Origin: a virus
Lineage: Duplodnaviria; Heunggongvirae; Uroviricota; Caudoviricetes
Length of the DNA: 51,664 nucleotides
Strand: one strand, 5' to 3'
IMG/VR virus record: IMGVR_UViG_2585427970_000003
Positions within the stretch are counted from its first letter, which is position 1. Each line of letters begins with the position of its first letter. A model generated the notes under the pieces. It did not search any database and was not told the DNA's origin. It saw only the letters and a program-made list of their open reading frames with translations. A program made the translations under genes and the position numbers. Below are positions 4,774 through 49,044 of this stretch, piece after piece.

Positions 4774-4826
4774 GGGCGGCAGAGCAGTCACGGAGTAAAA
4801 CTGATACCGCCAAACGTCACCAGAAA
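4774..4826 (-). ncRNA. dicF: DicF small RNA
   Basis: Minus-strand sequence TTTCTGGTGACGTTTGGCGGTATCAGTTTTACTCCGTGACTGCTCTGCCGCCC followed by a T-run; matches the 53-nt DicF as recalled; lies between ydfC and dicB as in the dicB operon. Confidence 0.8.
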
Positions 4827-6588: not shown

Positions 6589-7093
6589 ACAGGCTCGTGA
6601 GGCTCTGGATGCCTGGATATGTCGACCAGGAATGACACAGGAGCAGGCGACGATATTAATCACTGAAGCATTCTGGGCTTTGAAAGAGCGCCCGAACATC
6701 GATGTTCAGCGTGTCACATATGAAGGTGGCGCGATTGATCAGCGAGCGCTTGGCGTTAATCGAGTGAAGATATTTGAACGCTGGAAGGCTATCGACACCA
6801 GGGATAAGCGTGAAAAGTTCACGGCGCTAGTGCCTGCAATTATGGAGGCTATCCGGATTAATGATTTCAGGTTGTATCGTGAAATTACTGACGGAAAAAG
6901 CATCACGTGCATGATCGCCGGGTTAAACAAAGAATATGGCGATGTGGTGGAGTCCGGACTGCTTTTTGCTGATCCTGCCGTAGTGGATCGTGAAACTGAC
7001 GAACTTATAGAAAAAGCAATTGCTTTCAAACTTGCGTATCGACAGCAATACCAACAAAAAGCTGGATGGAATTATGAGCCTTCTTTTTGCTGA
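6572..7093 (+). CDS. YdaT-like protein (CII-position gene)
   Basis: 173 aa; shares the MKI..E......AW...KIF.RW...DT......ALVPAI pattern recalled from Rac YdaT; directly follows the cro-like gene. Confidence 0.5.
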   Translation: MKITPEQAREALDAWICRPGMTQEQATILITEAFWALKERPNIDVQRVTYEGGAIDQRALGVNRVKIFERWKAIDTRDKREKFTALVPAIMEAIRINDFRLYREITDGKSITCMIAGLNKEYGDVVESGLLFADPAVVDRETDELIEKAIAFKLAYRQQYQQKAGWNYEPSFC

Positions 7094-8039
7094 ACGCCCA
7101 CTGGTTATAAACACGCAGCTGGCAATGAAAATTGGCTTAAACGAAGCCATTGTTTTGCAACAACTGCACTACTGGTTGAGAGATACCAACTCCGGCATGG
7201 AATGTGATGGTGTTCGCTGGATTTATAACACAACGGAACAATGGCTGGAACAGTTCCCATTCTGGTCAGAGTCAACGTTAAAGCGCGCGTTTGCAAGTCT
7301 GAAAACGCTGGGGCTTTTGCGTTGTGAAAAGCTCAATAAATCAAAGCGCGATATGACCAATTTCTACACGATCAACTATGGGAGCGAGCTTTTAGATGGT
7401 GGCAAATTGAGCGAATCCATCGGTTCAAAATGCGCCGCTCCATCAGGTCAAAATGACACGATGGAAGAGGTCAAAATGAAACGCTCCATTGGTTCAAAAC
7501 GACCCAATGTCATCGGGTCAAAATGGCCTGATGATCTTACAGAGAATACAACAGAGATTACTACAGAGAATAAAAACACTTTTCGTCCGGAAGCTTCGCA
7601 ACCGGACCCGCAGACGACTGAACAGGATTTTTTAACCCGGAACTCCGACGCGGTTGTGTTTAGTGCGAAAAAACGCCAGTGGGGTAGCAGGGAGGATTTG
7701 GCGTGTGCGCAGTGGATCTGGGGGCGGATCGTGGGTCTCTACGAACAGGCAGCCAGTGATGATGGCGAGATCATGCGACCAAAAGAGCCTAACTGGACTG
7801 CCTGGGCCAATGACGTGCGCACAATGCGGATGCTGGATGGCAGAAGCCACAGACAAATTTGCGAAATGTTTGGTCGGGTTCAGCGAGATCCATTCTGGGT
7901 AAAAAACATCATGAGCCCGTCAAAGCTCCGCGAAAAATGGGACGAACTGGTCATCCGCCTGGGACGTTCACCTGTACAGCGTTGTGTTAATCATATTTCT
8001 GAACCGGATACAGAAATTCCGCCTGGTTTCAGAGGATAA
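7074..8039 (+). CDS. Replication initiator (O-like), iterons within coding sequence
   Basis: Central region encodes repeated IGSK peptides from five DNA iterons; ORF track starts at 7020 but ATG 7074 gives minimal overlap with upstream gene. Confidence 0.6.
   Translation: MSLLFAERPLVINTQLAMKIGLNEAIVLQQLHYWLRDTNSGMECDGVRWIYNTTEQWLEQFPFWSESTLKRAFASLKTLGLLRCEKLNKSKRDMTNFYTINYGSELLDGGKLSESIGSKCAAPSGQNDTMEEVKMKRSIGSKRPNVIGSKWPDDLTENTTEITTENKNTFRPEASQPDPQTTEQDFLTRNSDAVVFSAKKRQWGSREDLACAQWIWGRIVGLYEQAASDDGEIMRPKEPNWTAWANDVRTMRMLDGRSHRQICEMFGRVQRDPFWVKNIMSPSKLREKWDELVIRLGRSPVQRCVNHISEPDTEIPPGFRG
7416..7574. repeat. Putative replication origin: five ~23-bp-spaced iterons plus 3x ACAGAGA(A/T)TA repeats
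   Basis: Iterons with core GGT(T)CAAAA at 7422, 7446, 7469, 7491, 7515; followed by ACAGAGAATA (7541), ACAGAGATTA (7553), ACAGAGAATA (7565). Confidence 0.6.
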
Positions 8040-8079: not shown

Positions 8080-8502
8080 GTGGCAAAAGTTTTTACACAA
8101 GAAGAGCGGGAAAAAATTAAATGGCAGGTGGTGGAACTCGTGCGCCAGAGCGGCCGTGAGACGTTACGGCAACTGGAAGCTAAAACAGGTGCGACTAGAT
8201 ATCTGATGAGCGTTCTTGCCAGAGAGCTGGTAGCCAGTGGCGATGTATACAACTCCGGCTACGGGTTATTCCCCTCTGAACAGGCGCGTAAGGACTGGCA
8301 AAACGCCCGCAAAAAACTCTCGAGGGCAAAGGTGAAGAAACCTGCTGTGGTTGATCCGGACCTTATCTGGTCATCACCTGACGGAGAAATACGTCGCTAC
8401 GACAGTCGCCTAAACATAATCTGTCGCGAGTGCCGGAAGAGCGAAGTTATGCAGCGCATACTGGCTTTCTATCAGGGTAATTTTCAGGACGTGGCGCAGT
8501 GA
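8080..8502 (+). CDS. Hypothetical protein (140 aa)
   Basis: Intact ORF with no motif I can assign; stop overlaps the start of the methyltransferase remnant. Confidence 0.4.
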   Translation: MAKVFTQEEREKIKWQVVELVRQSGRETLRQLEAKTGATRYLMSVLARELVASGDVYNSGYGLFPSEQARKDWQNARKKLSRAKVKKPAVVDPDLIWSSPDGEIRRYDSRLNIICRECRKSEVMQRILAFYQGNFQDVAQ

Positions 8503-8945
8503 GTGCACCGGCAACCATTCTTGATATGTGCTGTGGCAGCCGCATGTTCTGGTTCGATAAGTCTGACGAACGGGCGATATTCAGCGATATCAGAAAAGAA
8601 GGATACACATTACGCAATGGGAGACGCTTGATTATCAGCCCTGACATTATCGCAGATTTTCGTGCATTATCATTTGCAGACGCATCTTTTTCGATGGTTG
8701 TATTAGACCCTCCGCATCTTGAGAGTGTTGGTGATAACGCCTGGATGGGAAAGAAATATGGACGGCTGAATAAAGATGCCTGGCGTGATGATTCGCGACA
8801 GAGATTTAAAGAAGCCTTTCGGGTGTTGAGGCCGCACGGCGTTCTGATTTTTTAATGGAATGAAACGCAAATACCGGTAAGCCAGATTCTGGCACTGACA
8901 GACAGAAAACCTGTTATCTGTCAACGAACAGGGAAAAAACGATAA
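8499..8945 (+). pseudogene. SAM-dependent amino-methyltransferase with premature in-frame TAA
   Basis: Motif I-like LDMCCGSRM and motif IV DPPH; TAA at 8853..8855 followed by 29 sense codons in the same frame (WNETQIPVSQILALTDRKPVICQRTGKKR) to TAA at 8943. Confidence 0.55.
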
Positions 8946-9117
8946 AACCCACTGGATTATTTTTATGAAAGAGGCATCCAGTGAGTAGATTCGTAAGGCT
9001 ACAGATACGTATATCTGAATAATTAAATTCAGTTCTGTAAATAAAATTTAATCCTTAACCGGATGGATTTCTGCACCCTCAGAACATCAGGAGGCCGCCC
9101 GAAAGGGCGGTAGTGAA

Positions 9118-9753
9118 ATGCGAAAGTTCAAAATTATTATTGAAACGGGAATAGCTGGTGGAGATTTTGAGGATGTATTCGAAGTGGACGATGACGCAAC
9201 ACCTGAGGAAATTCATGACGGAGCATAAGAAATTTTCTTTAACTACTGCAATTACTCATACCACGAAATAAAAGACGATGAGGAAGAACAAAGTGGCTGA
9301 TTTTTGTTCAGCTAAATATAACATCAGTTTTGAAGAGCGGGATGAACTATTAATGGACTATGGTGAGTTACGCGGTGGAAGTGCTGCTGATGTCGAATCC
9401 TAGCGTGATGACTATGAAGCGGGAAAAACTCCGGTCGAAGCATATTGTGATGAGTGGGGCGATGAATGAGCGAGATTAATTATCAGGAAGGGCATGAAAC
9501 GGCGGGGCAAGCAAAACCAGTGGCATGGCGATATCGCTACGTGAAAAAAGGCGTTACGGACTTTCAGGGGAAGTAGTGGTCTGGTGACTGGAAATATGTA
9601 CCGAAAAAAGAGGATTGTAACGACAGGCCGAACTATCAAATTCAGGCCTTATTCACTGCCTCACCAGTCCCAGTTACATCAGAAGAACTGGTTAAAGCTG
9701 TGCACTTTTATGAACAACTAAAACGCGAAAATCCACCAACATCCGGCAACTAG
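9118..9753 (+). pseudogene. Decayed acidic-protein gene(s): in-frame TAA/TAG stops and a frame change
   Basis: ORF from ATG 9118 has TAA at 9226 then continues to TGA 9298; ORF from GTG 9293 has in-frame TAG at 9401, ends 9469; ORF from ATG 9466 has in-frame TAG at 9574, ends 9753. Confidence 0.5.
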
Positions 9754-10007
9754 ATTAATGGATTAACTATGTCGGTTAAACGACCAGCCAACTGAAAAAG
9801 CGGAAACCTGATTACAGGTTGCCAGATAAGGCAATGAGCTACCTGGCGCGGAACGGACTGATAAGTATGGGGAATGTTTTACGATGAACCTTTAGACTAA
9901 AGAGTTTGTAACGCTATGTAAGTGATTTTTTCTGGTTTAGATATTTATATGTCCGGCCAAATTGAGGTGTGTTTAAATGTAATTGCACATTGATTGTAGG
10001 AGGAATA

Positions 10008-10187
10008 ATGAAAAACGCATTGCAGTTTTTGTTTGTTGCGTTCTGGTTGTTCGCATCATGTATGCCCATCATCTTCACAGCAAGGTATATGGAAAAAGTT
10101 GATGTTTTGATATTAATATTTGGATATATAAATGCCCTTTTTTTAGGGGTGTTCATGGCGGTCATGTGCATTGAATACTGGCGGTAA
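10008..10187 (+). CDS. Small hydrophobic membrane protein (59 aa, two predicted TM helices)
   Basis: MKNALQFLFVAFWLFASCMPIIFTARYMEKVDVLILIFGYINALFLGVFMAVMCIEYWR; AGGAGG at 9998..10003, 4 nt before ATG; AT-rich surroundings. Confidence 0.5.
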   Translation: MKNALQFLFVAFWLFASCMPIIFTARYMEKVDVLILIFGYINALFLGVFMAVMCIEYWR

Positions 10188-10521
10188 ATACAGCGAACTC
10201 CATTGGTTTAGTTGGATATTTACTGTGCTGGACAAAAACGGTTTGCGGGGAAATCTTAGTTAAGTAGAATGACTGCGGGTGCTTGAGGCTATCTGCCTCG
10301 GGCATGGACACCAACGGCAGATAGAGAAAAGCCCCAGTTAACATTACGCGTCCTGCAAGACGCTTAACATTAATCTGAGGCCAATTTCATGCTAGACACA
10401 TGTAGGTTAGCCTCTTACGTGCCGAAAGGCACGGAGAAGCAGGCTATTGTTAACACCAAGCTGTAATGTCCCCTTTGAACCATTCTAAAATGTCCCCAGA
10501 CAATTCTCTGGGGGATTTTTC

Positions 10522-11835
10522 ATGATCAAAGAGACTGTTACGATGAGTCATAAGGAACTCCACCGACTTCAGATTATTCAGGAACAAGCTGCGGCACGCA
10601 TTGGCATTTCTATTCGGCAGGTTAAACGTCTGGTGCAACGGTATAGAAATGAAGGGCCTTCTGGTCTGGTTTCCCACCGACGTGGAAAGCGTCCTAATAA
10701 TTCCTTTTCTACTGAATTCAGAGCAACAGTAATTTCACTCCTCAAAGGCCGTTACGCTGATTTTGGACCTACGTTTGCGTGCGAAAAATTGCGCGAGATA
10801 CACGGTTTATCTTTATCCGTTGAAACTCTCAGAAAGTGGATGATAGAAGAGGGGTTATGGCGTGAACGCCGTCGTAAAATTGCCCGTATATATCAACGCC
10901 GCATGCGACGACCATCTTACGGTGAACTGATCCAGATTGATGGCTCACCTCATGACTGGTTTGAAAATCGAGGCCCCAGATGTACACTGATCGTTTTCAT
11001 TGATGATGCCACCAGTGCGTTGATGGCGTTGCGTTTTGTGCCTGCTGAAACAACCCGGGCTTACATGGAAACCCTCCGGGGTTACCTTAATGATCATGGC
11101 GTACCGCTCGCTCTCTACTCTGATAGACACAGTATATTCAGGGTAAATAACCCAGAGCGGGAAGGTGAGCTGACCCAGTTCACTCGTGCGATAAAGACAC
11201 TGGGCATCGAGCCAATCCATGCCAACAGCCCGCAGGCAAAAGGGCGGGTAGAGCGCGCCAATCAGACACTACAGGACAGGCTGGTCAAAGAAATGCGGCT
11301 TCAGAATATCAGTGATATTGAAACAGCAAATGCATGGTTGCCGACCTTTATTGAAGCCTATAACAACCGGTTCGCTACGTCGCCTCGTACTACTGATAAT
11401 GCTCATCTTGATGTGCACCATTCTGAAGAGGAACTGGGTTATATCTTCAGCCTACAGGCGAAGCGCGTTCTGTCTAAAAATCTCACTTTCCAGTACAAAA
11501 GCAGTGCGTTTCAGGTACGCAGTGAGGGCCGGGGATATCGACTTAGGCATTCGGTTGTTACTGTATGCGAGAACTTTGACGGTGAAATTAACGTTCTGTA
11601 TGACGGGAAAGCGCTGGGCTGGGAAAAGTATGTTGATGGCCCGGAGCCTATACCACTGGATGATGAAAAGAGTGTCCATGAACGAGTGGATAATGCCCGT
11701 ATTGATTTACGCTCAAAATACTATGTTAAACCTAAAGCTGACCATCCCTGGCTTACGCGCCGAACGCAAAGTCATCAGCAAGTTAAGCCCCCGAAGTTAC
11801 CTAAAAAGAAGCCTGATCCCGATAAAAAAGATTGA
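10522..11835 (+). CDS. DDE-type transposase / integrase-core-domain protein (IS481/ISNCY-like)
   Basis: 437 aa; N-terminal HTH, then catalytic-type motifs IQIDGS ... LYSDRHSIF ... KGRVERANQ, basic C-terminal tail. Element ends not resolved. Confidence 0.65.
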   Translation: MIKETVTMSHKELHRLQIIQEQAAARIGISIRQVKRLVQRYRNEGPSGLVSHRRGKRPNNSFSTEFRATVISLLKGRYADFGPTFACEKLREIHGLSLSVETLRKWMIEEGLWRERRRKIARIYQRRMRRPSYGELIQIDGSPHDWFENRGPRCTLIVFIDDATSALMALRFVPAETTRAYMETLRGYLNDHGVPLALYSDRHSIFRVNNPEREGELTQFTRAIKTLGIEPIHANSPQAKGRVERANQTLQDRLVKEMRLQNISDIETANAWLPTFIEAYNNRFATSPRTTDNAHLDVHHSEEELGYIFSLQAKRVLSKNLTFQYKSSAFQVRSEGRGYRLRHSVVTVCENFDGEINVLYDGKALGWEKYVDGPEPIPLDDEKSVHERVDNARIDLRSKYYVKPKADHPWLTRRTQSHQQVKPPKLPKKKPDPDKKD

Positions 11836-17154: not shown

Positions 17155-17454
17155 AAAAATTCCTTAATACTGATAACTTGGCGCACTATACACACGTTCC
17201 TGAAGAAAGCTATAGTTTTTTGATGGGGTTGAAGATGGCTGGATGTCTAAAATAAACATTGCTTCATATGTTCAACTATGCGTTAATGATTGCGTCGGTT
17301 TGAAGAACAGACGATATACGAAGTAGTTTACTAAAGCAGTTCTCATTTCAGGTGTTATTCACTTATTCCTTCTTTGAGTCTCTCCAATTAAGTACGAAGT
17401 CGTTTCTGTTATGCAAACCATTTATGCCGAAAGGCTCAAGTTAAGGAATGTAGA

Positions 17455-17670
17455 ATGTCAAATAAAATGACTGGTTTAGTAAAATGGTTTAACGCTGATA
17501 AAGGTTTCGGCTTTATTTCTCCTGTTGATGGTAGTAAAGATGTGTTTGTGCATTTTTCTGCGATTCAGAATGATAATTATCGAACCTTATTTGAAGGTCA
17601 AAAGGTTACCTTCTCTATAGAGAGTGGTGCTAAAGGTCCTGCAGCAGCAAATGTCATCATTACTGATTAA
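17455..17670 (+). CDS. cspB: Cold shock protein CspB
   Basis: 71 aa [71 protein letters not shown]. Confidence 0.9.
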
Positions 17671-17951
17671 AATTCATCGCTCGTCTGTATACGATAACGA
17701 AGAAGGCTGATGCCTGAGTAGAGATACGGACAGAGTAGTGAATATTGGATCTCTTTAATAAAAAGTAAGGAGGTCCAATACATGAAACAATGGCTAGCAT
17801 ATTTGGCAAAATCTTAATCAGGAAAAGTATGCTAACCATTGTGGTGAAGTGCAGGTTTGCTGCATGAATAGTTTTACAGCAGAAGCTAACTGCTGGCATG
17901 GCAAAACAAAGTGCGTAAGTGGATGACTCCCACAAAAAGCACCACAATCTC

Positions 17952-19979: not shown

Positions 19980-20341
19980 GGTAATATTAAATCGGAACAT
20001 TTACATCGCGGAATGTAAAATTTAAATAAAAAGGACTCTTCCATGAGCCAAAATTCCTGAAATCTTAAGGGTAAGATAAAAGGTCTTAATCAGAATGACA
20101 CGTTTTATTAATAAATAAAGCTATTCTTTCATTGCTGTGTTTTTCTTTACAAAAGTAATCCTTGCTATGGGTGGTTAATCATGCGTTAATGGTGTTCTGG
20201 TTTGTTACAAATTTATCTGAAGCAGTCATTGTTATAATTTTATTATTTGTACCTCTTGAGATTTCCTTGTTGGTTTTTCTCTCTGATATTTTTTTTCGGA
20301 CCATTCTGCCCAAGGGCTAATTTCTTCAAAAGGTAATAATT

Positions 20342-20554
20342 ATGTCTAACAAAATGACTGGTTTAGTGAAATGGTTTAACCCTGAAAAAGGTTTTGGTTT
20401 CATCACGCCGAAAGATGGCAGCAAAGATGTGTTTGTCCATTTCTCAGCAATTCAGAGCAACGATTTCAAAACATTAACTGAGAATCAGGAAGTTGAATTT
20501 GGTATTGAGAACGGACCTAAAGGTCCTGCCGCTGTTCATGTAGTGGCGCTTTGA
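20342..20554 (+). CDS. cspI: Cold shock protein CspI
   Basis: 70 aa [70 protein letters not shown]. Confidence 0.9.
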
Positions 20555-20760
20555 GGTAGACAATATTACAAACCATATTCACTTTAGATGCCCGTGTTGT
20601 CATGGTTCCCAGTATAGAACATCATCTTTTGATGTTTCTGACATGAATCCTTTCGGGGCAAAATGTATCTTTTGTAAATCAATGATGATTACATTTGATA
20701 ATATTTCACAATACTTAAATGCCAGCCGTCTGTCGTTGGATTTAAAAAAGTGAAAATGAA

Positions 20761-37972: not shown

Positions 37973-40900
37973 ATGGGTAAAGGCAGCAGTAAGGGGCATA
38001 CCCCGCGCGAAGCGAAGGACAACCTGAAGTCCACGCAGCTGCTGAGTGTGATCGATGCCATCAGCGAAGGGCCGGTTGAAGGTCCGGTGGACGGATTAAA
38101 AAGCGTGCTGCTGAACAGTACGCCGGTGCTGGACAGTGAGGGGAATACCAATATATCCGGCGTCACGGTGGTGTTCCGGACCGGTGAGCAGGAGCAGTCA
38201 CCGCCGGAGGGATTTGAATCCTCCGGCTCCGAGACGGTGCTGGGTACGGAAGTGAAATATGACACGCCGATCACCCGGACCATCACGTCGGCAAACATCG
38301 ACCGTCTGCGCTTTACCTTCGGTGTACAGGCACTGGTGGAAACCACCTCAAAGGGGGACCGGAATCCGTCGGAAGTCCGCCTGCTGGTTCAGATACAGCG
38401 TAATGGTGGCTGGGTGACGGAAAAAGACATCACCATTAAGGGCAAAACCACCTCGCAGTATCTGGCCTCGGTGGTGGTGGATAACCTGCCGCCGCGCCCG
38501 TTCAATATCCGGATGCGCAGGATGACGCCGGACAGCACCACAGACCAGCTGCAGAACAAAACGCTCTGGTCGTCATACACCGAAATCATCGATGTGAAAC
38601 AGGGCTACCCGAACACGGCACTGGTCGGCGTGCAGGTGGATTCGGAGCAGTTCGGCAGCCAGCAGGTGAGCCGTAATTATCATCTGCGCGGGCGTATTCT
38701 GCAGGTGCCGTCGAATTATAACCCGCAGACGCGGCAATACAGCGGTATCTGGGACGGAACGTTTAAACCGGCATACAGCAACAACATGGCCTGGTGTCTG
38801 TGGGATATGCTGACCCACCCGCGCTACGGCATGGGGAAACGTCTTGGTGCGGCAGATGTGGATAAATGGGCGCTGTATGTCATCGGCCAGAATTGCGACC
38901 AGTCGGTGCCGGACGGCTTTGGCGGCACGGAGCCGCGCATTACCTGTAATGCGTACCTGACCACACAGCGCAAGGCGTGGGATGTGCTCAGTGATTTCTG
39001 CTCGGCGATGCGCTGTATGCCGGTATGGAACGGGCAGACGCTGACGTTCGTGCAGGACCGACCGTCGGATAAGGTGTGGACCTATAACCGCAGTAATGTG
39101 GTGATGCCGGATGATGGCGCGCCGTTCCGCTACAGCTTCAGCGCCCTGAAGGACCGTCATAATGCCGTTGAGGTGAACTGGATTGACCCGAATAACGGCT
39201 GGGAGACGGCGACAGAGCTTGTGGAGGATACGCAGGCCATTGTCCGTTACGGTCGTAACGTCACGAAGATGGATGCCTTTGGCTGTACCAGCCGGGGGCA
39301 GGCGCACCGCGCCGGGCTGTGGCTGATTAAAACGGAACTGCTGGAAACGCAGACCGTGGACTTCAGCGTGGGTGCGGAAGGGCTTCGCCATGTACCGGGG
39401 GATGTCATTGAAATCTGCGATGATGACTATGCGGGTATCAGCATCGGCGGGCGCGTGCTGGCGGTGAACAGCCAGACCCGGACGCTGACGCTCGACCGTG
39501 AAATCACGCTGCCATCCTCCGGTACCACGCTGATAAGCCTGGTTGACGGAAGTGGCAATCCGGTCAGCGTGGAGGTCCAGTCCGTCACCGACGGCGTGAA
39601 GGTAAAAGTGAGCCGTGTTCCTGACGGCGTTGCCGGATACAGCGTGTGGGGGCTGAAGCTGCCGACGCTGCGCCAGCGCCTGTTCCGCTGCGTGAGTATC
39701 CGTGAGAACGATGACGGCACGTATGCCATCACCGCCGTGCAGCATGTACCGGAAAAAGAGGCCATCGTGGATAACGGGGCGCACTTTGACGGCGACCAGA
39801 GCGGCACGGTGAATGGTGTCACGCCGCCAGCGGTGCAGCACCTGACTGCCGAAGTCACCGCAGACAGCGGGGAATATCAGGTACTGGCCCGCTGGGACAC
39901 GCCGAAGGTGGTGAAGGGGGTGAGCTTTATGCTTCGCCTGACCGTGGCAGCGGATGACGGCAGTGAGCGGCTGGTCAGCACAGCCCGGACGGCGGAAACC
40001 ACATACCGCTTCACACAACTGGCGCTGGGGAACTACAGGCTGACAGTCCGGGCAGTAAATGCGTGGGGGCAGCAGGGCGATCCGGCATCGGTATCGTTCC
40101 GGATTGCCGCACCGGCAGCGCCGTCGCAGATTGAGCTGACACCGGGGTATTTTCAGATAACCGCCACGCCGCATCTTGCGGTTTATGATCCGACGGTACA
40201 GTTTGAGTTCTGGTTCTCGGAAAAGCGGATTGCGGATATCAGGCAGGTTGAAACCAGCGCGCGCTATCTTGGCACGGGGATGTACTGGATAGCCGCCAGT
40301 ATCAATATCAAACCGGGCCATGATTATTACTTTTATATCCGCAGTGTGAACACCGTTGGCAAATCGGCATTCGTGGAGGCTGTCGGTCAGGCGAGCGATG
40401 ATGCGGAAGGTTACCTGGATTTTTTCAAAGGCCAGATAACCGAATCCCATCTCGGCAAGGAGCTGCTGGAAAAAGTCGAGCTGACGGAGGATAACGCCAG
40501 CAAACTGGAGGAGTTTTCGAAAGAGTGGCAGGACGCTAACGATAAGTGGAATGCCATGTGGGGCGTCAAAATTGAGCAGACCAAAGACGGCAAACATTAT
40601 GTCGCGGGTATTGGCCTCAGCATGGAGGACACGGAAGAAGGTAAGCTGAGCCAGTTTCTGGTTGCCGCTAACCGTATCGCGTTTATTGAACCGGCAAACG
40701 GGAATGAAACGCCGATGTTTGTGGCGCAGGGCAATCAGATATTTATGAACGACGTGTTCCTGAAGCGCCTGACGGCCCCGACCATTACCAGCGGTGGAAA
40801 TCCACCGGCATTTTCCCTGACATCAGACGGAAAGCTGACCGCTAAAAATGCGGATATCAGTGGCAGTGTGAATGCGAACGCCGGGACGCTCAACAATGTC

Positions 40901-41446
40901 ACGGTAAATGAAAACTGTACGATTAAGGGCATGCTGGAGGCGACTCAGGTCAGAGGTGACTTCGTTAAAGCTGTATCCAAATCATTCCCGAAACAGGCTG
41001 GTACGTGGGGTAATACGGAAACACCAAACGGGACGGTTACAGTCACCATCAGCGATGATCATAACTTTGACCGTCAAATCATTATTCCGCCCATTATCTT
41101 TAACGGAATAGCGTATAGCGATCCGGGAAGTGGTAATAACCCGGGAGGTACAAGATACACGGGTTATGGTTTTGAAGTTCGCAAAAACGGTGTATTAATC
41201 GCATCCAGAGAAACTAAAGGGGCCATTCCCGGTAGCTACAGTGCGGTTATTGATATGCCGAGTGGCAGGGGAAGCGTCACTCTGGAGTTTAAGGTTTTCC
41301 ATAAAGGCAATCAGCGGGCAGGTAATATCACCGACTGTACGGTGATTGTGACCAAAAAAGCGGCTTCTGCGTATTTTCATGAAAGGAGATCACTCAATAA
41401 CTTCCATCGAGATCGGGTAATAACATTTGAACAGATCGCTGAATAA
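37973..41446 (+). CDS. J: Tail tip / host-specificity protein J, 3' end replaced by IS-derived sequence
   Basis: [43 protein letters not shown]...; the last 25 codons (from 41369) lie inside the left inverted repeat of an IS21-family element. Confidence 0.85.
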
Positions 41447-41560
41447 CATCGATGGAGATCACTTTTGACTCATTTTGTTATTCAGTGATCTCCATCAATG
41501 TTATTGGAACTTCACAGGTGTGTTGATCTGTATCTTTTGCCATTCCGGTAAAGGATACCT

Positions 41561-43102
41561 ATGCCAACAGTTCCAATTTCTATGAGAAAACTTAAAGAAA
41601 TTCTTAGGCTTAAATACGGTGTTGGACTCAGCCATCGACAAATTGGTCGTAGTCTTGCAATCTCCCCTTCCGTTGTATCCAGATATGCTAATCGGGCGGC
41701 TCAACTTGGCATAAAGCAGTGGCCCTTACCTACAGGATGGGATGATACAAAACTAAAACATGCGTTCCTTCAGACCCAGGTTAAGATGAAGAAGCACTCT
41801 CTGCCTGACTGGGCTACAGTACACCGGGAACTGCGTAATAAATGCGTGACGCTGCAGCTACTCTGGGAAGAATACTGTGAGCGTAATCCAGGCGGTTTTT
41901 ACAGCTATAACCATTACTGCCGGATGTACCGTGAATGGCTCAAAACCACTTCACCATCAATGCGTCAGGTACATAAAGCTGGCGAAAAACTTTTCGTTGA
42001 TTACTGTGGACCTACCGTTGGCGTTACCGACCCTGAGACCGGAGAAATAAGAACTGCTCAGGTCATCGTAGCTGTTCTCGGGGCATCAAGTTACACATGG
42101 GCAGAGGCCACCTGGTCTCAGCAGCTTGAAGACTGGGTGATGAGTCATGTTCGCTGCTTCCAGTGGTTGGGTGGCGTTCCTGAACTTGTTGTTCCGGACA
42201 ATCTGAAAAGCGCCACATCCAGGGCATGTAAGTATGATCCTGACGTTAACCCTACCTACCAGCAGATGCTTGAGCATTATAATGTCGCAGTTTTGCCTGC
42301 GCGGCCACGTAAACCGAAAGATAAAGCCAAAGCTGAAGTTGGCGTTCAGGTTGTTGAACGCTGGATCATGGCCCGAATCAGGCATGAGATCTTCTACAGC
42401 CTTGCATCGCTTAATCAGCGCATTCGGGAGTTGCTGGAAAGACTGAATAACAAAATAATGCAGAAGTTGGGTTATTCACGTGCAGAACTCTTCATCCAGC
42501 TTGATAAACCCGCACTGAAGCCTCTTCCTGAAGCCAGTTACAGTTACACCCTGGTGAAGAAAGTCAGAGTTCATGCCGATTACCACGTGGAAATCGACAA
42601 ACATTACTACTCGGTTCCATGTTCGCTGTTAGGCCAGCAACTGGAAGCATGGATCTCCGGAGAACTGGTAAGACTCTTCAATCAGGGGCAGGAGGTTGCT
42701 GTGCACCCGCGCAAGCGTACTTATGGCTACAGTACCCGCAACGAGCACATGCCTGAAGCTCATCGACAGCATGCCACCTGGACGCCAGAGCGTCTTCTGG
42801 AATGGGCGGGGCACATAGGCAGTGAAACTCATAGTTATGTGCTTCATATACTGAACTCTCGTCCACATCCGGAACAAAGCTATCGCTTCTGCCTTGGACT
42901 CCTGAACCTTCATAAAAAATACAGTAAAGCCAGACTTAATGCAGCATGTGCAAGAGCTCTGAAAACAAAGGTATGGCGTCTGTCAGGTATTAAATCGATC
43001 CTGGAAAAAGGTCTGGATAAACAACCTGTTCAGGATCCAAAACCAGATCTGTTATCCACGATGGAACACGAAAACGTACGCGGCAGTGAGTATTACCACT
43101 GA
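41561..43102 (+). CDS. istA: IS21-family transposase IstA
   Basis: 513 aa; N-terminal HTH then integrase-core-like catalytic region. Confidence 0.8.
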   Translation: MPTVPISMRKLKEILRLKYGVGLSHRQIGRSLAISPSVVSRYANRAAQLGIKQWPLPTGWDDTKLKHAFLQTQVKMKKHSLPDWATVHRELRNKCVTLQLLWEEYCERNPGGFYSYNHYCRMYREWLKTTSPSMRQVHKAGEKLFVDYCGPTVGVTDPETGEIRTAQVIVAVLGASSYTWAEATWSQQLEDWVMSHVRCFQWLGGVPELVVPDNLKSATSRACKYDPDVNPTYQQMLEHYNVAVLPARPRKPKDKAKAEVGVQVVERWIMARIRHEIFYSLASLNQRIRELLERLNNKIMQKLGYSRAELFIQLDKPALKPLPEASYSYTLVKKVRVHADYHVEIDKHYYSVPCSLLGQQLEAWISGELVRLFNQGQEVAVHPRKRTYGYSTRNEHMPEAHRQHATWTPERLLEWAGHIGSETHSYVLHILNSRPHPEQSYRFCLGLLNLHKKYSKARLNAACARALKTKVWRLSGIKSILEKGLDKQPVQDPKPDLLSTMEHENVRGSEYYH

Positions 43103-43113
43103 TACGGGATCCA

Positions 43114-43863
43114 ATGATGAATCATCTTTACGAACAACTGACCGCACTTAAACTCACCGGCTTCCGTGATGCGCTTAAAAAGCAACTTGCTCAGCCGGGC
43201 ACATACCAGGAGCTGGGCTTCGAAGAACGCCTGTCATTACTGACAGCAGAAGAACTAACCTGCCGTGAAAACAGGAAGGCAGAGCGTCTGATCAAACATG
43301 CACGGTTCAGACTTAATGCTGAGTTATCAAAGCTGGATTATCGTAACAATAGAGGGCTGGACAGGGCCCTCATCCGTTCACTCAGTCAGGGAAACTGGTT
43401 AACCCTGAAACAAAATATTTTACTGACCGGGGCCACCGGCAGCGGTAAAACGTTCCTGGCATGTGCACTTGGTCATAATGCCTGCCGACAGGGATACAAG
43501 GTCTACTATTATCGCCTTAAAGCGCTGATGGAACAGTGCTATCAGGGGCATGCTGATGGAAGATACAGCAAACTTTTGACCAGGCTGAATAATAGCGATC
43601 TGCTGCTTCTGGATGACTGGGGGCTGGAACCTCTCTCATCAGAACAGCGTAGCGACCTGCTGGAAATAGTGGATCTGATGTACCAACGAGGCTCAATCAT
43701 CGTAGTGAGCCAGTTGCCGGTGGAAAACTGGTACAAAATGATCGGAGACTCCACACATGCGGATGCCATCCTAGATCGACTGGTTCATGGCAGTATCAAG
43801 ATCGAACTTAAAGGAGAATCAATGCGGAAAATACAATCTCCGTTGACCGAAGGAGATCAGTGA
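43114..43863 (+). CDS. istB: IS21-family ATP-binding helper IstB
   Basis: 249 aa; Walker A GATGSGKT, Walker B LLLLDDWG. Confidence 0.85.
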   Translation: MMNHLYEQLTALKLTGFRDALKKQLAQPGTYQELGFEERLSLLTAEELTCRENRKAERLIKHARFRLNAELSKLDYRNNRGLDRALIRSLSQGNWLTLKQNILLTGATGSGKTFLACALGHNACRQGYKVYYYRLKALMEQCYQGHADGRYSKLLTRLNNSDLLLLDDWGLEPLSSEQRSDLLEIVDLMYQRGSIIVVSQLPVENWYKMIGDSTHADAILDRLVHGSIKIELKGESMRKIQSPLTEGDQ

Positions 43864-44042
43864 AGGTAATTTAAAAACGGTTCTGTGAAAGTGACACGAA
43901 CCGATCTCCATCGATGTTACTCACCGATCTCCTTCACGGTAATACGCAGCTTCAGGCATCAGTATTCGTTGAAATATTTATAACCCCAATAAATGGCGTC
44001 AGGAATGACGCCTTTTTTATTGCAGAAAAGCGAGAGGTAATT

Positions 44043-44642
44043 ATGCGTAAAGTTTGTGCAGCCATTTTGTCCGCAGCCATTTGTCTGGCCGTATCCGGTG
44101 CGCCTGCATGGGCGTCTGAACATCAGTCCACGCTGAGCGCGGGGTATCTTCATGCCCGGACCAACGTTCCCGGCAGTGATGATCTGAACGGGATTAACGT
44201 GAAATACCGTTATGAGTTTACGGATACGCTGGGGCTGGTGACGTCATTCAGCTATGCAGGAGACAAGAATCGCCAGCTGACCCATTACAGCGATACCCGC
44301 TGGCATGAAGATTCCGTTCGTAACCGCTGGTTCAGCGTAATGGCGGGGCCGTCTGTGCGCGTGAATGAATGGTTCAGCGCGTATGCGATGGCGGGTGTGG
44401 CTTACAGCCGTGTGTCGACTTTCTCCGGGGATTATCTCCGCGTAACTGACAACAAGGGGAAAACGCACGACGTGCTGACCGGAAGTGATGACGGTCGCCA
44501 CAGCAACACGTCTCTGGCGTGGGGAGCTGGCGTGCAGTTTAACCCGACCGAATCCGTGGCCATTGATATTGCTTATGAAGGCTCCGGCAGTGGCGACTGG
44601 CGCACTGACGGTTTCATCGTGGGTGTCGGTTATAAGTTCTGA
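44043..44642 (+). CDS. lom: Lom outer-membrane protein (Ail/Lom family)
   Basis: MRKVCAAILSAAICLAVSGAPAWA signal peptide; C-terminus ...DIAYEGSGSGDWRTDGFIVGVGYKF as in lambda Lom. Confidence 0.85.
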   Translation: MRKVCAAILSAAICLAVSGAPAWASEHQSTLSAGYLHARTNVPGSDDLNGINVKYRYEFTDTLGLVTSFSYAGDKNRQLTHYSDTRWHEDSVRNRWFSVMAGPSVRVNEWFSAYAMAGVAYSRVSTFSGDYLRVTDNKGKTHDVLTGSDDGRHSNTSLAWGAGVQFNPTESVAIDIAYEGSGSGDWRTDGFIVGVGYKF

Positions 44643-44697: not shown

Positions 44698-44706
44698 GGG
44701 GTGAAT

Positions 44707-47700
44707 ATGGCAGTAAAGATTTCAGGTGTACTGAAAGACGGCACAGGAAAACCGGTACAGAACTGCACAATCCAGCTGAAAGCAAAACGTAACAGCACCA
44801 CGGTGGTGGTGAACACGCTGGCCTCAGAAAATCCGGATGAAGCCGGGCGTTACAGCATGGACGTTGAGTACGGTCAGTACAGCGTTATTCTGTTGGTGGA
44901 AGGATTCCCGCCGTCACATGCCGGGACCATCACCGTGTATGAAGATTCCCGACCCGGTACGCTGAATGATTTTCTCGGTGCCATGACGGAGGATGATGCC
45001 CGTCCGGAGGCTCTGCGCCGTTTTGAACTGATGGTGGAAGAGGTGGCGCGTAACGCGTCCGCGGTGGCACAGAACACGGCAGCCGCGAAGAAGTCAGCCA
45101 GTGATGCCGGCACATCTGCCAGTGAGGCGGCAACCCATGCGACTGATGCTGCAGGCTCAGCGCGTGCAGCCAGCACGTCAGCCGGACAGGCCGCGACGTC
45201 GGCTCAGGAGGCGTCTTCCAGCGCAGGAACGGCATCAACAAAGGCCACTGAAGCATCAAAAAGTGCTGCCGCTGCAGAGTCCTCAAAAAGCGCGGCGGCC
45301 ACCAGTGCCGGTGCCGCGAAAACGTCAGAAACGAATGCTGCAGCGTCACAAAAATCAGCAGCCACTTCTGCATCCACTGCGACGACGAAAGCGTCAGAAG
45401 CCGCCACTTCAGCCCGGGATGCGGCGGCCTCCAAAGAGGCGGCAAAATCATCAGAAACGAACGCCTCCACAAGCGCCAGCAGTGCAGCCTCCTCGGCAAC
45501 GGCGGCAGGAAATTCCGTGAAGGCGGCAAAAACGTCCGAGACGAATGCTAAGTCTTCTGAAACGGCAGCGGAACAGAGCGCCTCAGCTGCGGCAGACTCT
45601 GAGACAACAGCTGCATCATCGGCCCGTGAGGCGTCCATTAAGGCAGAGGAGGCAGCAGTCAGTGCCACCGCCGCCGGAAAATCGGCAGAAAGCGCCGCAT
45701 CATCCGCTTCAACAGCCACAACGAAGGCTGGCGAAGCCACTGAACAGGCCAGCGCAGCAGCGAGGTCTGCTTCCGCAGCGAAGACATCCGAAACGAACGC
45801 GAAAGCGTCGGAAACCAGCGCAGAATCCTCAAAAACGGCTGCCGCATCGTCCGCCAGTTCGGCGGCGTCATCGGCATCATCGGCGTCTGCTTCAAAAGAT
45901 GAGGCGACCAGACAGGCGTCAGCAGCGAGGGGCAGCGCCACGACGGCATCCACGAAGGCGACAGAGGCTGCTGGCAGTGCGGCAGCGGCAGCACAGAGCA
46001 AAAGTACGGCAGAATCCGCAGCAACGCGCGCCGAGACAGCAGCAAAACGGGCAGAGGATATTGCATCCGCCGTGGCGCTTGAGGATGCGAGCACGACGAA
46101 AAAGGGGATAGTACAGCTCAGTAGTGCGACTAACAGCACTTCCGAGTCACTGGCGGCAACACCAAAAGCCGTTAAGGCCGCGTATGACCTGGCTAACGGG
46201 AAATACACCGCACAGGATGCAACGACAGCACAGAAAGGGATAATCCAGCTAAGCAGCGCGACCAACAGCACGTCTGAAACGCTTGCCGCGACACCAAAGG
46301 CAGTAAAAGCAGCCAATGACAATGCTGAGAAACGTCTGCAGAAAGATCAGAACGGTGCGGATATCCCTGGCAAAGATACCTTTACGAAAAATATTGGTGC
46401 CTGCCGTGCCTTCGGTGGGTCAGTAAGCACAACAACAGGAAACTGGACGACTGCACAGTTTATCGAGTGGCTGGATTCTCAGGGAGCATTTAACCATCCA
46501 TACTGGATGTGCAAGGGTTCCTGGTCTTATGGCAATAATAAAATCATTACTGATACTGACTGCGGTAATATTCATCTCGCCGGAGCTGTCATTGAAGTAA
46601 TGGGGATAAAGTCAGCGATGACGATCCGCATTACCACACCGACCACCTCCACTGGTGGTGGAACAACTAACGCCCAGTTTACCTATATTAATCACGGAAC
46701 AGATTATTCACCTGGCTGGCGAAGGGACTATAACTCCAGAAATAAGCCAACGGCATCAGAGATCGGGGCGTTACCGTCAGGTGGAACAGCAGTATCATCA
46801 GTTAATCTGGCTTCAAAAGGTCGGGTAACCGCGCTGACAGACAATACGCAGGGGGCAGCAGGTCTTGAGTTATACGAGGTGTATAACAACGGATATCCAA
46901 CAGCGTATGGAAATATCATTCACCTGAAAGGGATGACAGCCGTTGGCGAAGGTGAGTTACTCATCGGCTGGAGTGGTACAAGCGGTGCTCATGCTCCGGC
47001 ATTTATTCGTTCACGACGGGATACGACCGACGCAAACTGGTCGCCGTGGGCGCAGCTTTACACCTCGGCTCATCCTCCTGCAGAGTTTTATCCAGTCGGT
47101 GCACCAATCCCGTGGCCATCAGATACCGTTCCGTCTGGCTATGCCCTGATGCAGGGGCAGACTTTTGACAAATCTGCATACCCGAAACTTGCAGTTGCTT
47201 ATCCGTCAGGCGTGATCCCTGATATGCGTGGCTGGACGATTAAGGGCAAGCCCGCCAGTGGTCGGGCCGTATTATCTCAGGAACAGGACGGCATTAAATC
47301 GCACACCCACAGCGCCAGCGCATCCAGTACGGATTTGGGGACGAAAACCACATCGTCGTTTGATTACGGAACCAAATCCACGAATAACACCGGGGCGCAT
47401 ACCCATAGTATTAGCGGGACCGCAAATAGTGCCGGTGCGCACCAACACAAGAGTTCCGGTGCATTTGGTGGCACGAACACGAGCATTTTCCCTAATGGTT
47501 ATACCGCGATTTCAAATCTAAGCGCGGGGATTATGAGCACAACAAGCGGTAGTGGCCAGACTCGTAATGCAGGGAAGACATCATCAGATGGTGCTCATAC
47601 CCACTCGCTGTCCGGCACTGCTGCAAGCGCAGGCGCACATGCACATACTGTCGGTATTGGTGCTCATACGCACTCCGTTGCGATTGGTTCACATGGACAC

Positions 47701-47781
47701 ACCATCACCGTTAACGCTGCTGGTAACGCGGAAAACACCGTCAAAAACATCGCATTTAACTATATTGTGAGGCTTGCATAA
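44707..47781 (+). CDS. stf: Side tail fibre Stf (full length)
   Basis: [60 protein letters not shown]...; long Ala/Ser/Thr-rich central repeat; His-rich C-terminal region. Confidence 0.85.
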
Positions 47782-48356
47782 TGGCATTCAGAATGAGTGA
47801 ACAACCACGGACCATAAAAATTTATAATCTGCTGGCCGGAACTAATGAATTTATTGGTGAAGGTGATGCATATATTCCGCCTCATACAGGTCTGCCAGCA
47901 AACAGTACCGATATTGCACCGCCAGATATTCCGGCTGGCTTCGTGGCTGTTTTCAACAGTGATGAGTCATCGTGGCATCTCGTTGAAGATCATCGGGGTA
48001 AAACGGTTTATGACGTGGCTTCCGGCGACGCGTTATTTATTTCTGAACTCGGTCCGTTACCGGAAAATGTTACCTGGTTATCGCCGGAAGGGGAGTTTCA
48101 GAAGTGGAACGGCACAGCCTGGGTGAAGGATACGGAAGCAGAAAAACTGTTCCGGATCCGGGAGGCGGAAGAAACAAAAAACAACTTGATGCAGGTAGCC
48201 AGTGAGCATATTGCGCCGCTTCAGGATGCTGCAGATCTGGAAATTGCAACGGAGGAAGAAATCTCGTTGCTGGAAGCATGGAAAAAGTATCGGGTATTGC
48301 TGAACCGTGTTGATACGTCAACTGCACAGGATATTGAATGGCCAGCACTGCCGTAG
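47781..48356 (+). CDS. tfa: Tail fibre assembly protein Tfa
   Basis: 191 aa; start overlaps stf stop by 1 nt. Confidence 0.8.
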
Positions 48357-48453
48357 GGTAAAACATATAAATTCTATAATTAGATGTATCTTTCCATTTA
48401 CGGCAAGGAAGGGGGCTTGGAAGACGTAAAGCATCTCACACCGAGATTATTTT

Positions 48454-49044
48454 TTATATGTCAGGTGTCTGAAGTTTTGCTTTGGCTCTTAAAATGGTTT
48501 GCCGCGAGGTTTTGAATTCCCGGGCAATGGCACTTATACTTACACCTGACTTAATTCGTTCGAATACCGCCTGTTTCTGTTCTTCATTTAACACAGGTGG
48601 TCGACCAAAACGTTTCCCTGCGCCGCGGGCTCTTACTATCCCGGAATGAGTGCGTTCAAGTAAAAGGTCTCGTTCAAATTCAGCGACTGCTGAAATTACT
48701 TGCATCATCATTTTTCCTGTTGGACTGGTCAGGTCAATGCCCCCCAATGCTAAGCAATGCACTCTGATACCTGTTTCGGTCAGTTGTTCCACTGTTTTCC
48801 TGATATCCATTGCATTACAGCCAAGGCGATCCAGTTTTGTCACAATCAATTGATCACCACATTTCAGGCGAGCAAGCAACCGGTTAAAACCAGGACGCTC
48901 ACTGGTTGCTGCTGAGCCGCTAATGTGTTCTTCGATTATTTGCTGAGGTTTGATTTTAAAACCTGCACTTTCGATTTCCCGGCGTTGATTTTCGGTGGTC
49001 TGATCCAGCGTTGATATCCGACAGTAAGCAAAAATTTGAGACAT
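48454..49044 (-). CDS. pin: Serine recombinase, Pin-type DNA invertase
   Basis: 196 aa [29 protein letters not shown]...; resolvase catalytic Ser motif and C-terminal HTH. Confidence 0.85.

Follow-up and report, generated by a model that had tools for sequence, protein, structure and literature searches.

In Escherichia coli ST131 clade C, a published insertion of ISEc12 splits the gene tssM near its middle, is flanked by a 5-bp target duplication (ACTGC) and has become fixed in a global clone (PMC10711316). For the tail-tip protein J of lambdoid phages, structures of the receptor-binding domain (RBD) are available for lambda gpJ, a LamB binder (PDB 8XCJ/8XCK), and for A8 gpJ, an OmpC binder (PDB 9WCA/9WCB); in lambda this domain is Ig-like, and loops L1-L4 at its bottom insert into LamB (PMC11101478). 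Here we describe a locus in which the two subjects meet, a complete ISEc12 copy lying in the last codons of a prophage J gene, within a stretch of 51,664 nucleotides (hereafter the window). The tssM and J cases have the same IS and a duplication of the same length (GCTTC in J); in each, the interrupted gene belongs to a contractile or tail-like machine and an empty site validates the insertion. The published tssM allele is divided and globally fixed (PMC10711316); J, in contrast, loses only its last five codons and its allele is essentially private. Compared with ISEc12 elsewhere in E. coli, the copy in the window has the same 2581-bp sequence, the same order of istA and istB, the same TG...CA ends and a target duplication of the same 5-bp length, and the insertion site alone differs. 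Such an event, in which an IS disrupts a prophage gene, leaves a target duplication and allows the empty site to be recovered, is routine and of an already known kind. What is new here is the insertion site alone, which is unreported in the collections searched.

The window contains a full-length Qin-type lambdoid prophage of E. coli, located between rspB and ydfJ. The integrase gene is next to rspB and is followed by dicB/DicF/dicA/dicC, relBE-hokD, Q, the lysis genes, nohA-terminase, the head genes and the tail genes up to J; after J come lom, stf/tfa and pinQ, with ydfK and a truncated ydfJ at the end. All the morphogenesis ORFs from nohA to J are open, and apart from the insertion in J this module shows no obvious lesion. 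The early region looks degraded. It is shared at 100% identity with strains that have a remnant Qin, and it holds a truncated methyltransferase gene, pseudogenes, an ISNCY-type transposase and an O-like initiator that lacks an adjacent P-like loader. Because the early region already looks degraded, the lesion in J probably costs the host nothing; the prophage may already have been non-viable before the insertion, in which case the lesion would be selectively neutral. A Pin-invertible segment around stf/tfa was also considered since pinQ is adjacent; it was discarded, as no flanking inverted repeats were found around stf/tfa.

The element spans 41368..43948 (2581 bp) and is complete, with TG at 41368-41369 and CA at 43947-43948 as its 5' and 3' ends. 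Positions 41363-43953 of the window read GCTTC, then TGCGTATTTTCATGAAAGGAGATC ... CGGTAATACGCA, then GCTTC, with exactly 2581 bp between the two duplication copies. Along its whole length the element matches RefSeq copies annotated 'IS21-like element ISEc12 family' with 100% identity (2581/2581), and all six of the independent full-length copies retrieved from other strains agree with it byte for byte. Matches to it are present in 1909 of 5426 complete E. coli genomes, at a median of three places per genome, on chromosomes as well as plasmids. Judged by this identity, the element is ISEc12 of the IS21 family, a known element and not a new kind; the name follows RefSeq/PGAP naming and the literature (IstA, WP_001298859.1; IstB, WP_001016257.1).

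A preliminary description of the locus had proposed an IS21-family element with istA and istB, bounded by imperfect inverted repeats of about 49 bp with 5'-TG...CA-3' ends and flanked on both sides by GCTTC, and all of this holds. When the left terminal inverted repeat (41368..41416, + strand) is aligned with the reverse complement of the right one (43901..43948, - strand), 38 of 49 columns are identical and one 1-nt gap is needed. An ungapped comparison of the ends gives only 19 matches in 60 positions, but the single 1-nt gap restores the inverted repeat, and the repeats are real. Motifs of the GGAGATC type recur at both ends. Three direct copies (41385 and 41408, both within the terminal repeat, and 41454; + strand) and one inverted copy (41487-41493, - strand) are found at the left end, and two direct copies (43903-43909 and 43926-43932, within the terminal repeat; - strand) and one inverted copy (43852, + strand) at the right. 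A sub-terminal palindrome at 41442..41505 consists of two 22-nt arms (41442-41463 and 41484-41505) that are 95% complementary and separated by a 20-nt spacer, each arm having a GGAGATC motif. Multiple sub-terminal motif sites are typical of IS21-family ends, at which they presumably bind IstA. The repeated motifs at both ends of the present element are presumed to have this role, and the palindrome is presumed to provide putative additional IstA-binding sites.

Both genes of the element are intact. istA (41561..43102, + strand) encodes a DDE transposase of 513 aa with the Pfam domains rve and Mu-transpos_C_2, and scores 310 bits against NCBIfam NF033546 (IS21 family transposase; cutoff 160). 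istB (43114..43863, + strand) encodes an AAA+ helper ATPase of 249 aa, matched by Pfam IstB_IS21 with 227 bits and by NCBIfam NF038214 (IS21-like element helper ATPase IstB) with 270 bits (cutoff 200), with the Walker A motif GATGSGKT and the Walker B motif LLLLDD. The RefSeq start of istB is at 43117, one codon later than 43114. The stop of istA and the start of istB are 11 nt apart, so the two form a consecutive same-strand pair as expected for the family. All the IS21-family features examined here, namely istA/istB, the TG...CA ends, the motifs and the short duplication, are present. Given its intact ORFs and its sequence identity to other copies, the ISEc12 copy of the window is presumably active.

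The two copies of GCTTC (41363..41367 and 43949..43953) directly abut the element and form a perfect 5-bp target duplication, within the 4-8 bp range of the IS21 family. Seven other ISEc12 copies were compared in this respect: four have a 5-bp duplication, one has a 7-bp duplication and two have none. At the byte-identical copies the 5-bp duplications are CCTGC, GCGTT and CCCGC and the 7-bp one is GTCAGGG; the seventh copy, which is frameshifted and resides in lom of strain G6/7, has CCGCT. Taken together with the published duplication in tssM (PMC10711316), these indicate that GCTTC is exactly what ISEc12 makes.

The fusion ORF of J and ISEc12 (37973..41446, + strand) encodes 1157 aa, of which residues 1-1132 are authentic J and the last 25 are read from the left end of the IS up to a TAA at 41444-41446. 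The insertion point follows a Ser codon that overlaps the duplication, and the residues GISIR are lost from J. The displaced 3' remnant of J (43952..43972, + strand) overlaps the right duplication copy and reads TCA GGC ATC AGT ATT CGT TGA, that is, S-G-I-S-I-R-stop, with the GISIR codons now at 43955-43969 and the TGA extending to 43972. Deletion in silico of 41368-43953, the IS together with one GCTTC copy, restores a J of 1137 aa that ends in VTKKAASGISIR (...KKAASGISIR) followed by the stop codon; RefSeq gpJ in a relative has the same length. The restoration of the J frame, the 25 IS-encoded residues at the present end of J and the distance of 2.6 kb between J and lom had all been stated in the preliminary description and are confirmed. 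The similar lambda J ending that it gives, ...KKQALGISVV, agrees with lambda gpJ in the PDB.

The fusion protein has the full series of J domains in Pfam (FNIII-A_GpJ, Phage-tail_3, Ig_J, Ig_J_second, Phage_Tail_Tip and Ig_GpJ_C), the match to the Ig_GpJ_C profile covering positions 33-129 of 135, versus 33-134 of 135 in the restored J. A lambda-type J combines these domains with a C-terminal GIS[IV]; in the fusion all domains are present and GISIR is displaced. On this reading of the ORF, the gene is a J whose extreme 3' end has been disrupted. The homologues retrieved with the fused C-terminus as query fall into two classes, which separate the native ending from the acquired one. The J-type RBD relatives that reach the C-terminus all end with GISIR, or with GISIS in relatives that are about 42-43% identical, and the AYFHERR... 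tail is in none of the J-type relatives matched, so that no IS-free relative among them speaks for it as a J ending. The identical 25-aa tail is found instead at the C-terminus of at least 58 unrelated proteins, including adhesins, Ogr/Delta zinc fingers, antirestriction proteins, Lom and an IS1 transposase, and is their sole similarity to the query. Its presence on so many unrelated truncated proteins marks it as a generic read-in product of the ISEc12 left end rather than a native end of J.

The in-silico empty site has natural counterparts. At least 19 complete E. coli genomes match the empty J-lom junction at 400/400 positions, all with the annotation gpJ followed by Ail/Lom; at lower identity the empty site occurs in thousands more genomes, and coverage of the junction query reaches at least 80% in 1997 genomes. 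Since the element has full-length identity to ISEc12 and the computed empty site is found verbatim in other genomes, the observation is not due to chance. The filled junction, on the other hand, is present in 0 of the 5426 complete E. coli genomes. Three apparent full-coverage matches to the junction, in strains G6/7, G8 and G1/2, turned out to be a separate insertion of ISEc12 inside lom. These have the same IS in the same orientation and the same J-lom-stf neighbourhood, with the duplication CCGCT, but differ in the site, in their frameshifted istA/istB and in that J is intact. The exact 44-nt junction GTGACCAAAAAAGCGGCTTCTGCGTATTTTCATGAAAGGAGATC has no match among the GTDB species-representative genomes. 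Only two contigs on record encode precisely this 1157-aa fusion protein, and the one shown, from GCA_000714975.1 (JMJD01000003.1), is the window's own assembly, as the window contains its 15.5-kb locus in full and unchanged.

With a view to dating the insertion, we sought an IS-free prophage of almost the same sequence. Over 25 kb the best matches reach an identity of only about 98%, since the prophages are mosaic, and there is no clean IS-free sister prophage among these matches. The proposal in the preliminary description that the event is recent is nevertheless supported by other evidence: the six identical IS copies, the perfect duplication, the 400-bp flanks identical to those of empty sites, and the private distribution of the junction together suggest a recent insertion restricted to this strain lineage.

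We propose that the tail-tip gene J of a Qin-type lambdoid prophage received a complete ISEc12 copy in its last codons by transposition, and that staggered cleavage and repair duplicated the 5-bp target GCTTC. The insertion swapped the five C-terminal residues of J (GISIR) for 25 residues from the IS left end and shifted lom by 2.6 kb. We regard this identity of the element and this history of the insertion as very likely indeed.

What, then, became of lom and of transcription at the end of the late operon? lom (44043..44642, + strand; 199 aa), an Ail/Lom outer-membrane beta-barrel gene according to Pfam (Ail_Lom, E 3.9e-123) and to the RefSeq annotation of empty-site relatives, is intact; it is now 2.6 kb from the body of J and keeps its own 70-bp upstream region. 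This region includes a terminator-like hairpin with a T-run (43995..44012, + strand), downstream of J, which now lies between the IS and lom. The mechanical ORF list contains an ORF at 43914-44642, which is an in-frame upstream extension of lom starting inside the IS. A scan of the J 3' end, the IS ends and the J-lom intergenic region gave no sigma-70-like promoter. In particular, an outward promoter at the IS right end that could drive lom was looked for and not found, the sole sigma-70-like match being inside istB and the sites being fewer than in shuffled sequence. ISEc12 is co-oriented with J, and late read-through transcription would therefore enter istA. The IS leader folds strongly (z = -4.85), and in the predicted fold a 12-bp hairpin (41530-41541 with 41547-41558) sequesters the Shine-Dalgarno sequence of istA, wherever the transcript starts.

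As for the J protein itself, AlphaFold2 monomer models of the native and fused RBD have a mean pLDDT of 67-68, with the core mostly at 70-92. The trimer is outside the reach of these monomers. The last core beta-strand, CTVIVTK, precedes the insertion point, and the predicted Ig-like core is the same in native and fused J. pLDDT falls below 50 in both tails, the native GISIR and the IS-derived one. According to the models, the Ig core of the fused J probably still folds, with a predicted disordered IS-derived tail, and the fused J might still fold and assemble, given that the last strand is upstream of the insertion and that the core is the same in both models. The best PDB matches of the native RBD model (Foldseek) are the lambda and A8 gpJ central fibres, with E around 1e-14. 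Both belong to the same Ig_GpJ_C family and have the same KK-x-x-x-GIS[IV] end as the restored J, although, over the Foldseek alignment, the J RBD of the window is only about 48-53% identical to them, A8 gpJ being the closer of the two.

The residues lost from J belong to a conserved motif. V-I-V-x-K-K-x-x-x-G-I-S-I is invariant in 14 aligned RBD relatives, some of them only about 50% identical, and the terminal motif is common to lambda gpJ (...KKQALGISVV, PDB 8IYK/8XCJ) and A8 gpJ (...KKSTAGISI, PDB 9WCA), whose domains are otherwise divergent. GIS[IV] may have a role in trimer packing or in a contact with the beta-prism. In lambda J, L1127 directly precedes GISVV, and an allele that combines L1127P with Q1078R was constructed as a variant in adsorption rate (PMC3176204). 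Because the invariant C-terminal motif is lost, we infer that J is, on balance, probably impaired for tail-tip assembly or adsorption.

Could the fusion of J and the IS nevertheless be a functional variant under selection, in which the new tail changes receptor specificity or late transcription drives istAB or lom? The predicted preservation of the Ig-like RBD core and the shared orientation of the IS and J, by which late read-through would enter istA, speak for such a variant. Set against them are the generic nature of the tail, which is carried by at least 58 unrelated truncated proteins, the lack of an outward sigma-70-like promoter at the IS right end, the 12-bp hairpin that buries the istA Shine-Dalgarno sequence and the confinement of the allele to one lineage, and we consider selection for the fusion very unlikely. 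The same low expectation applies to two more specific versions. In one, suggested by the co-orientation of ISEc12 at the very end of the late operon, Q-antiterminated late transcription would read into istAB and give a burst of transposition at induction; in the other, the J with a floppy 25-aa tail instead of GISIR would still assemble and show altered receptor use.

Two further explanations deny that the insertion took place as proposed. An assembler may misplace a multi-copy IS, in which case J would truly be intact; ISEc12 is indeed multi-copy in many E. coli genomes (a median of three places per genome) and the source record has the prefix of a WGS assembly (JMJD01). It is hard to see how a misplaced repeat would give a perfect 5-bp duplication of the exact length typical of ISEc12, and the contig is 4.74 Mb long with the fusion protein seen on two contigs, which makes an artefact extremely improbable. 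The reverse history, in which the ancestral allele carried the IS and its precise excision produced the IS-free J-lom junctions, is a formal possibility only and the least credible of all these explanations. Precise excision of IS21-family elements is rare, and the empty sites are spread over thousands of genomes with diverse prophage backgrounds (1997 genomes cover at least 80% of the query), whereas just two contigs on record have the filled site. The J relatives, moreover, all end with GISIR or GISIS, and lambda and A8 gpJ share the GIS[IV] end. The reading we retain is the transposition of ISEc12 into an intact J.

The significance of this insertion is slight beyond annotation. It explains the aberrant 1157-aa J and the apparently orphaned lom of this strain, and the junction, absent from the 5426 complete genomes, is a strain-specific marker. 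The 25-aa AYFHERR... tail at the C-terminus of a protein is a reliable signature of an ISEc12 inserted immediately downstream, and the J locus is a further case of the erosion of prophage tail genes by ISEc12.

The receptor-binding domain of the tail-tip protein J (window 40967-41367) is nearer in sequence to that of A8 gpJ (E 1.2e-7) than to that of lambda gpJ (E 2.7e-4). The structure of A8 gpJ has been solved in complex with OmpC (PDB 9WCA/9WCB), whereas lambda gpJ is a LamB binder. On this sequence comparison, the receptor of this Qin-type J may therefore be a protein other than LamB.

Elsewhere in the prophage, the early region (8499-11835) looks degraded. Its DNA methyltransferase is truncated, the 118 remaining residues corresponding to positions 52-165 of a 229-position profile; an ISNCY-type transposase ORF lies at 10522-11835, and early-region pseudogenes are annotated in an identical relative. 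Immediately after the O-like initiator gene (7020-8039) comes a Ren-like gene, and a P-like loader is missing there. Downstream of stf/tfa, a gene for a Pin-family DNA invertase follows immediately (48454-49044, minus strand). A search of 44701-49044 for the inverted repeats that would delimit an invertible tail-fibre segment found none, and the inversion switch is probably vestigial in this prophage. In E. coli FAM21845 (locus L001, 16798-20210), one of the strains whose IS-free J-lom junction is 100% identical, the annotation of gpJ itself shows a frameshift, with ISSen4 and IS1B located near tfaQ/pinQ. Qin-type prophages are undergoing independent decay in different strains.

RNA matches at the Rfam gathering level comprise the DicF sRNA (4774-4825, minus strand) and, on the plus strand, the sok antitoxin RNA adjoining hokD (10277-10448), two cspA-type thermoregulator 5′ UTRs belonging to cspB and cspI homologues (17294-17686 and 20196-20581) and an 'IS009' RNA within tfaQ (48124-48322).

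Within ISEc12, the istA leader contains a 12-bp hairpin at 41530-41558 (arms GTATCTTTTGCC and GGTAAAGGATAC), which buries the istA Shine-Dalgarno sequence, located 3 nt before the ATG start codon. The folding z-score of the full 208-nt leader is -4.85. Such a fold may dampen translation of istA, or may protect it from read-through transcripts.

At the right end of the element, a mechanically called ORF (43914-44642, 242 aa) begins at an ATG within the IS and continues into lom in the same frame. The true lom start is at 44043, with GAGAGG upstream, and the longer ORF is a likely source of mis-annotation. Independent ISEc12 insertions are also found in the neighbouring lom of related prophages (locus L002, 4575-7152, in E. 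coli G6/7, with further cases in G8 and G1/2; also proteins P0059 and P0119). In one of them istA/istB are frameshifted and the target duplication is CCGCT, and another Lom::IS-tail fusion differs in insertion site; the J-lom region has thus been hit repeatedly.

Public databases contain at least 58 unrelated proteins (P0059 and P0064-P0120) that end in the 25-residue peptide encoded by 41369-41446 in the J frame. They originate from E. coli, Klebsiella and Salmonella and include adhesins, Ogr, antirestriction proteins, Lom and an IS1 transposase, among others. This C-terminal tail is an annotation signature for an ISEc12 insertion just downstream.
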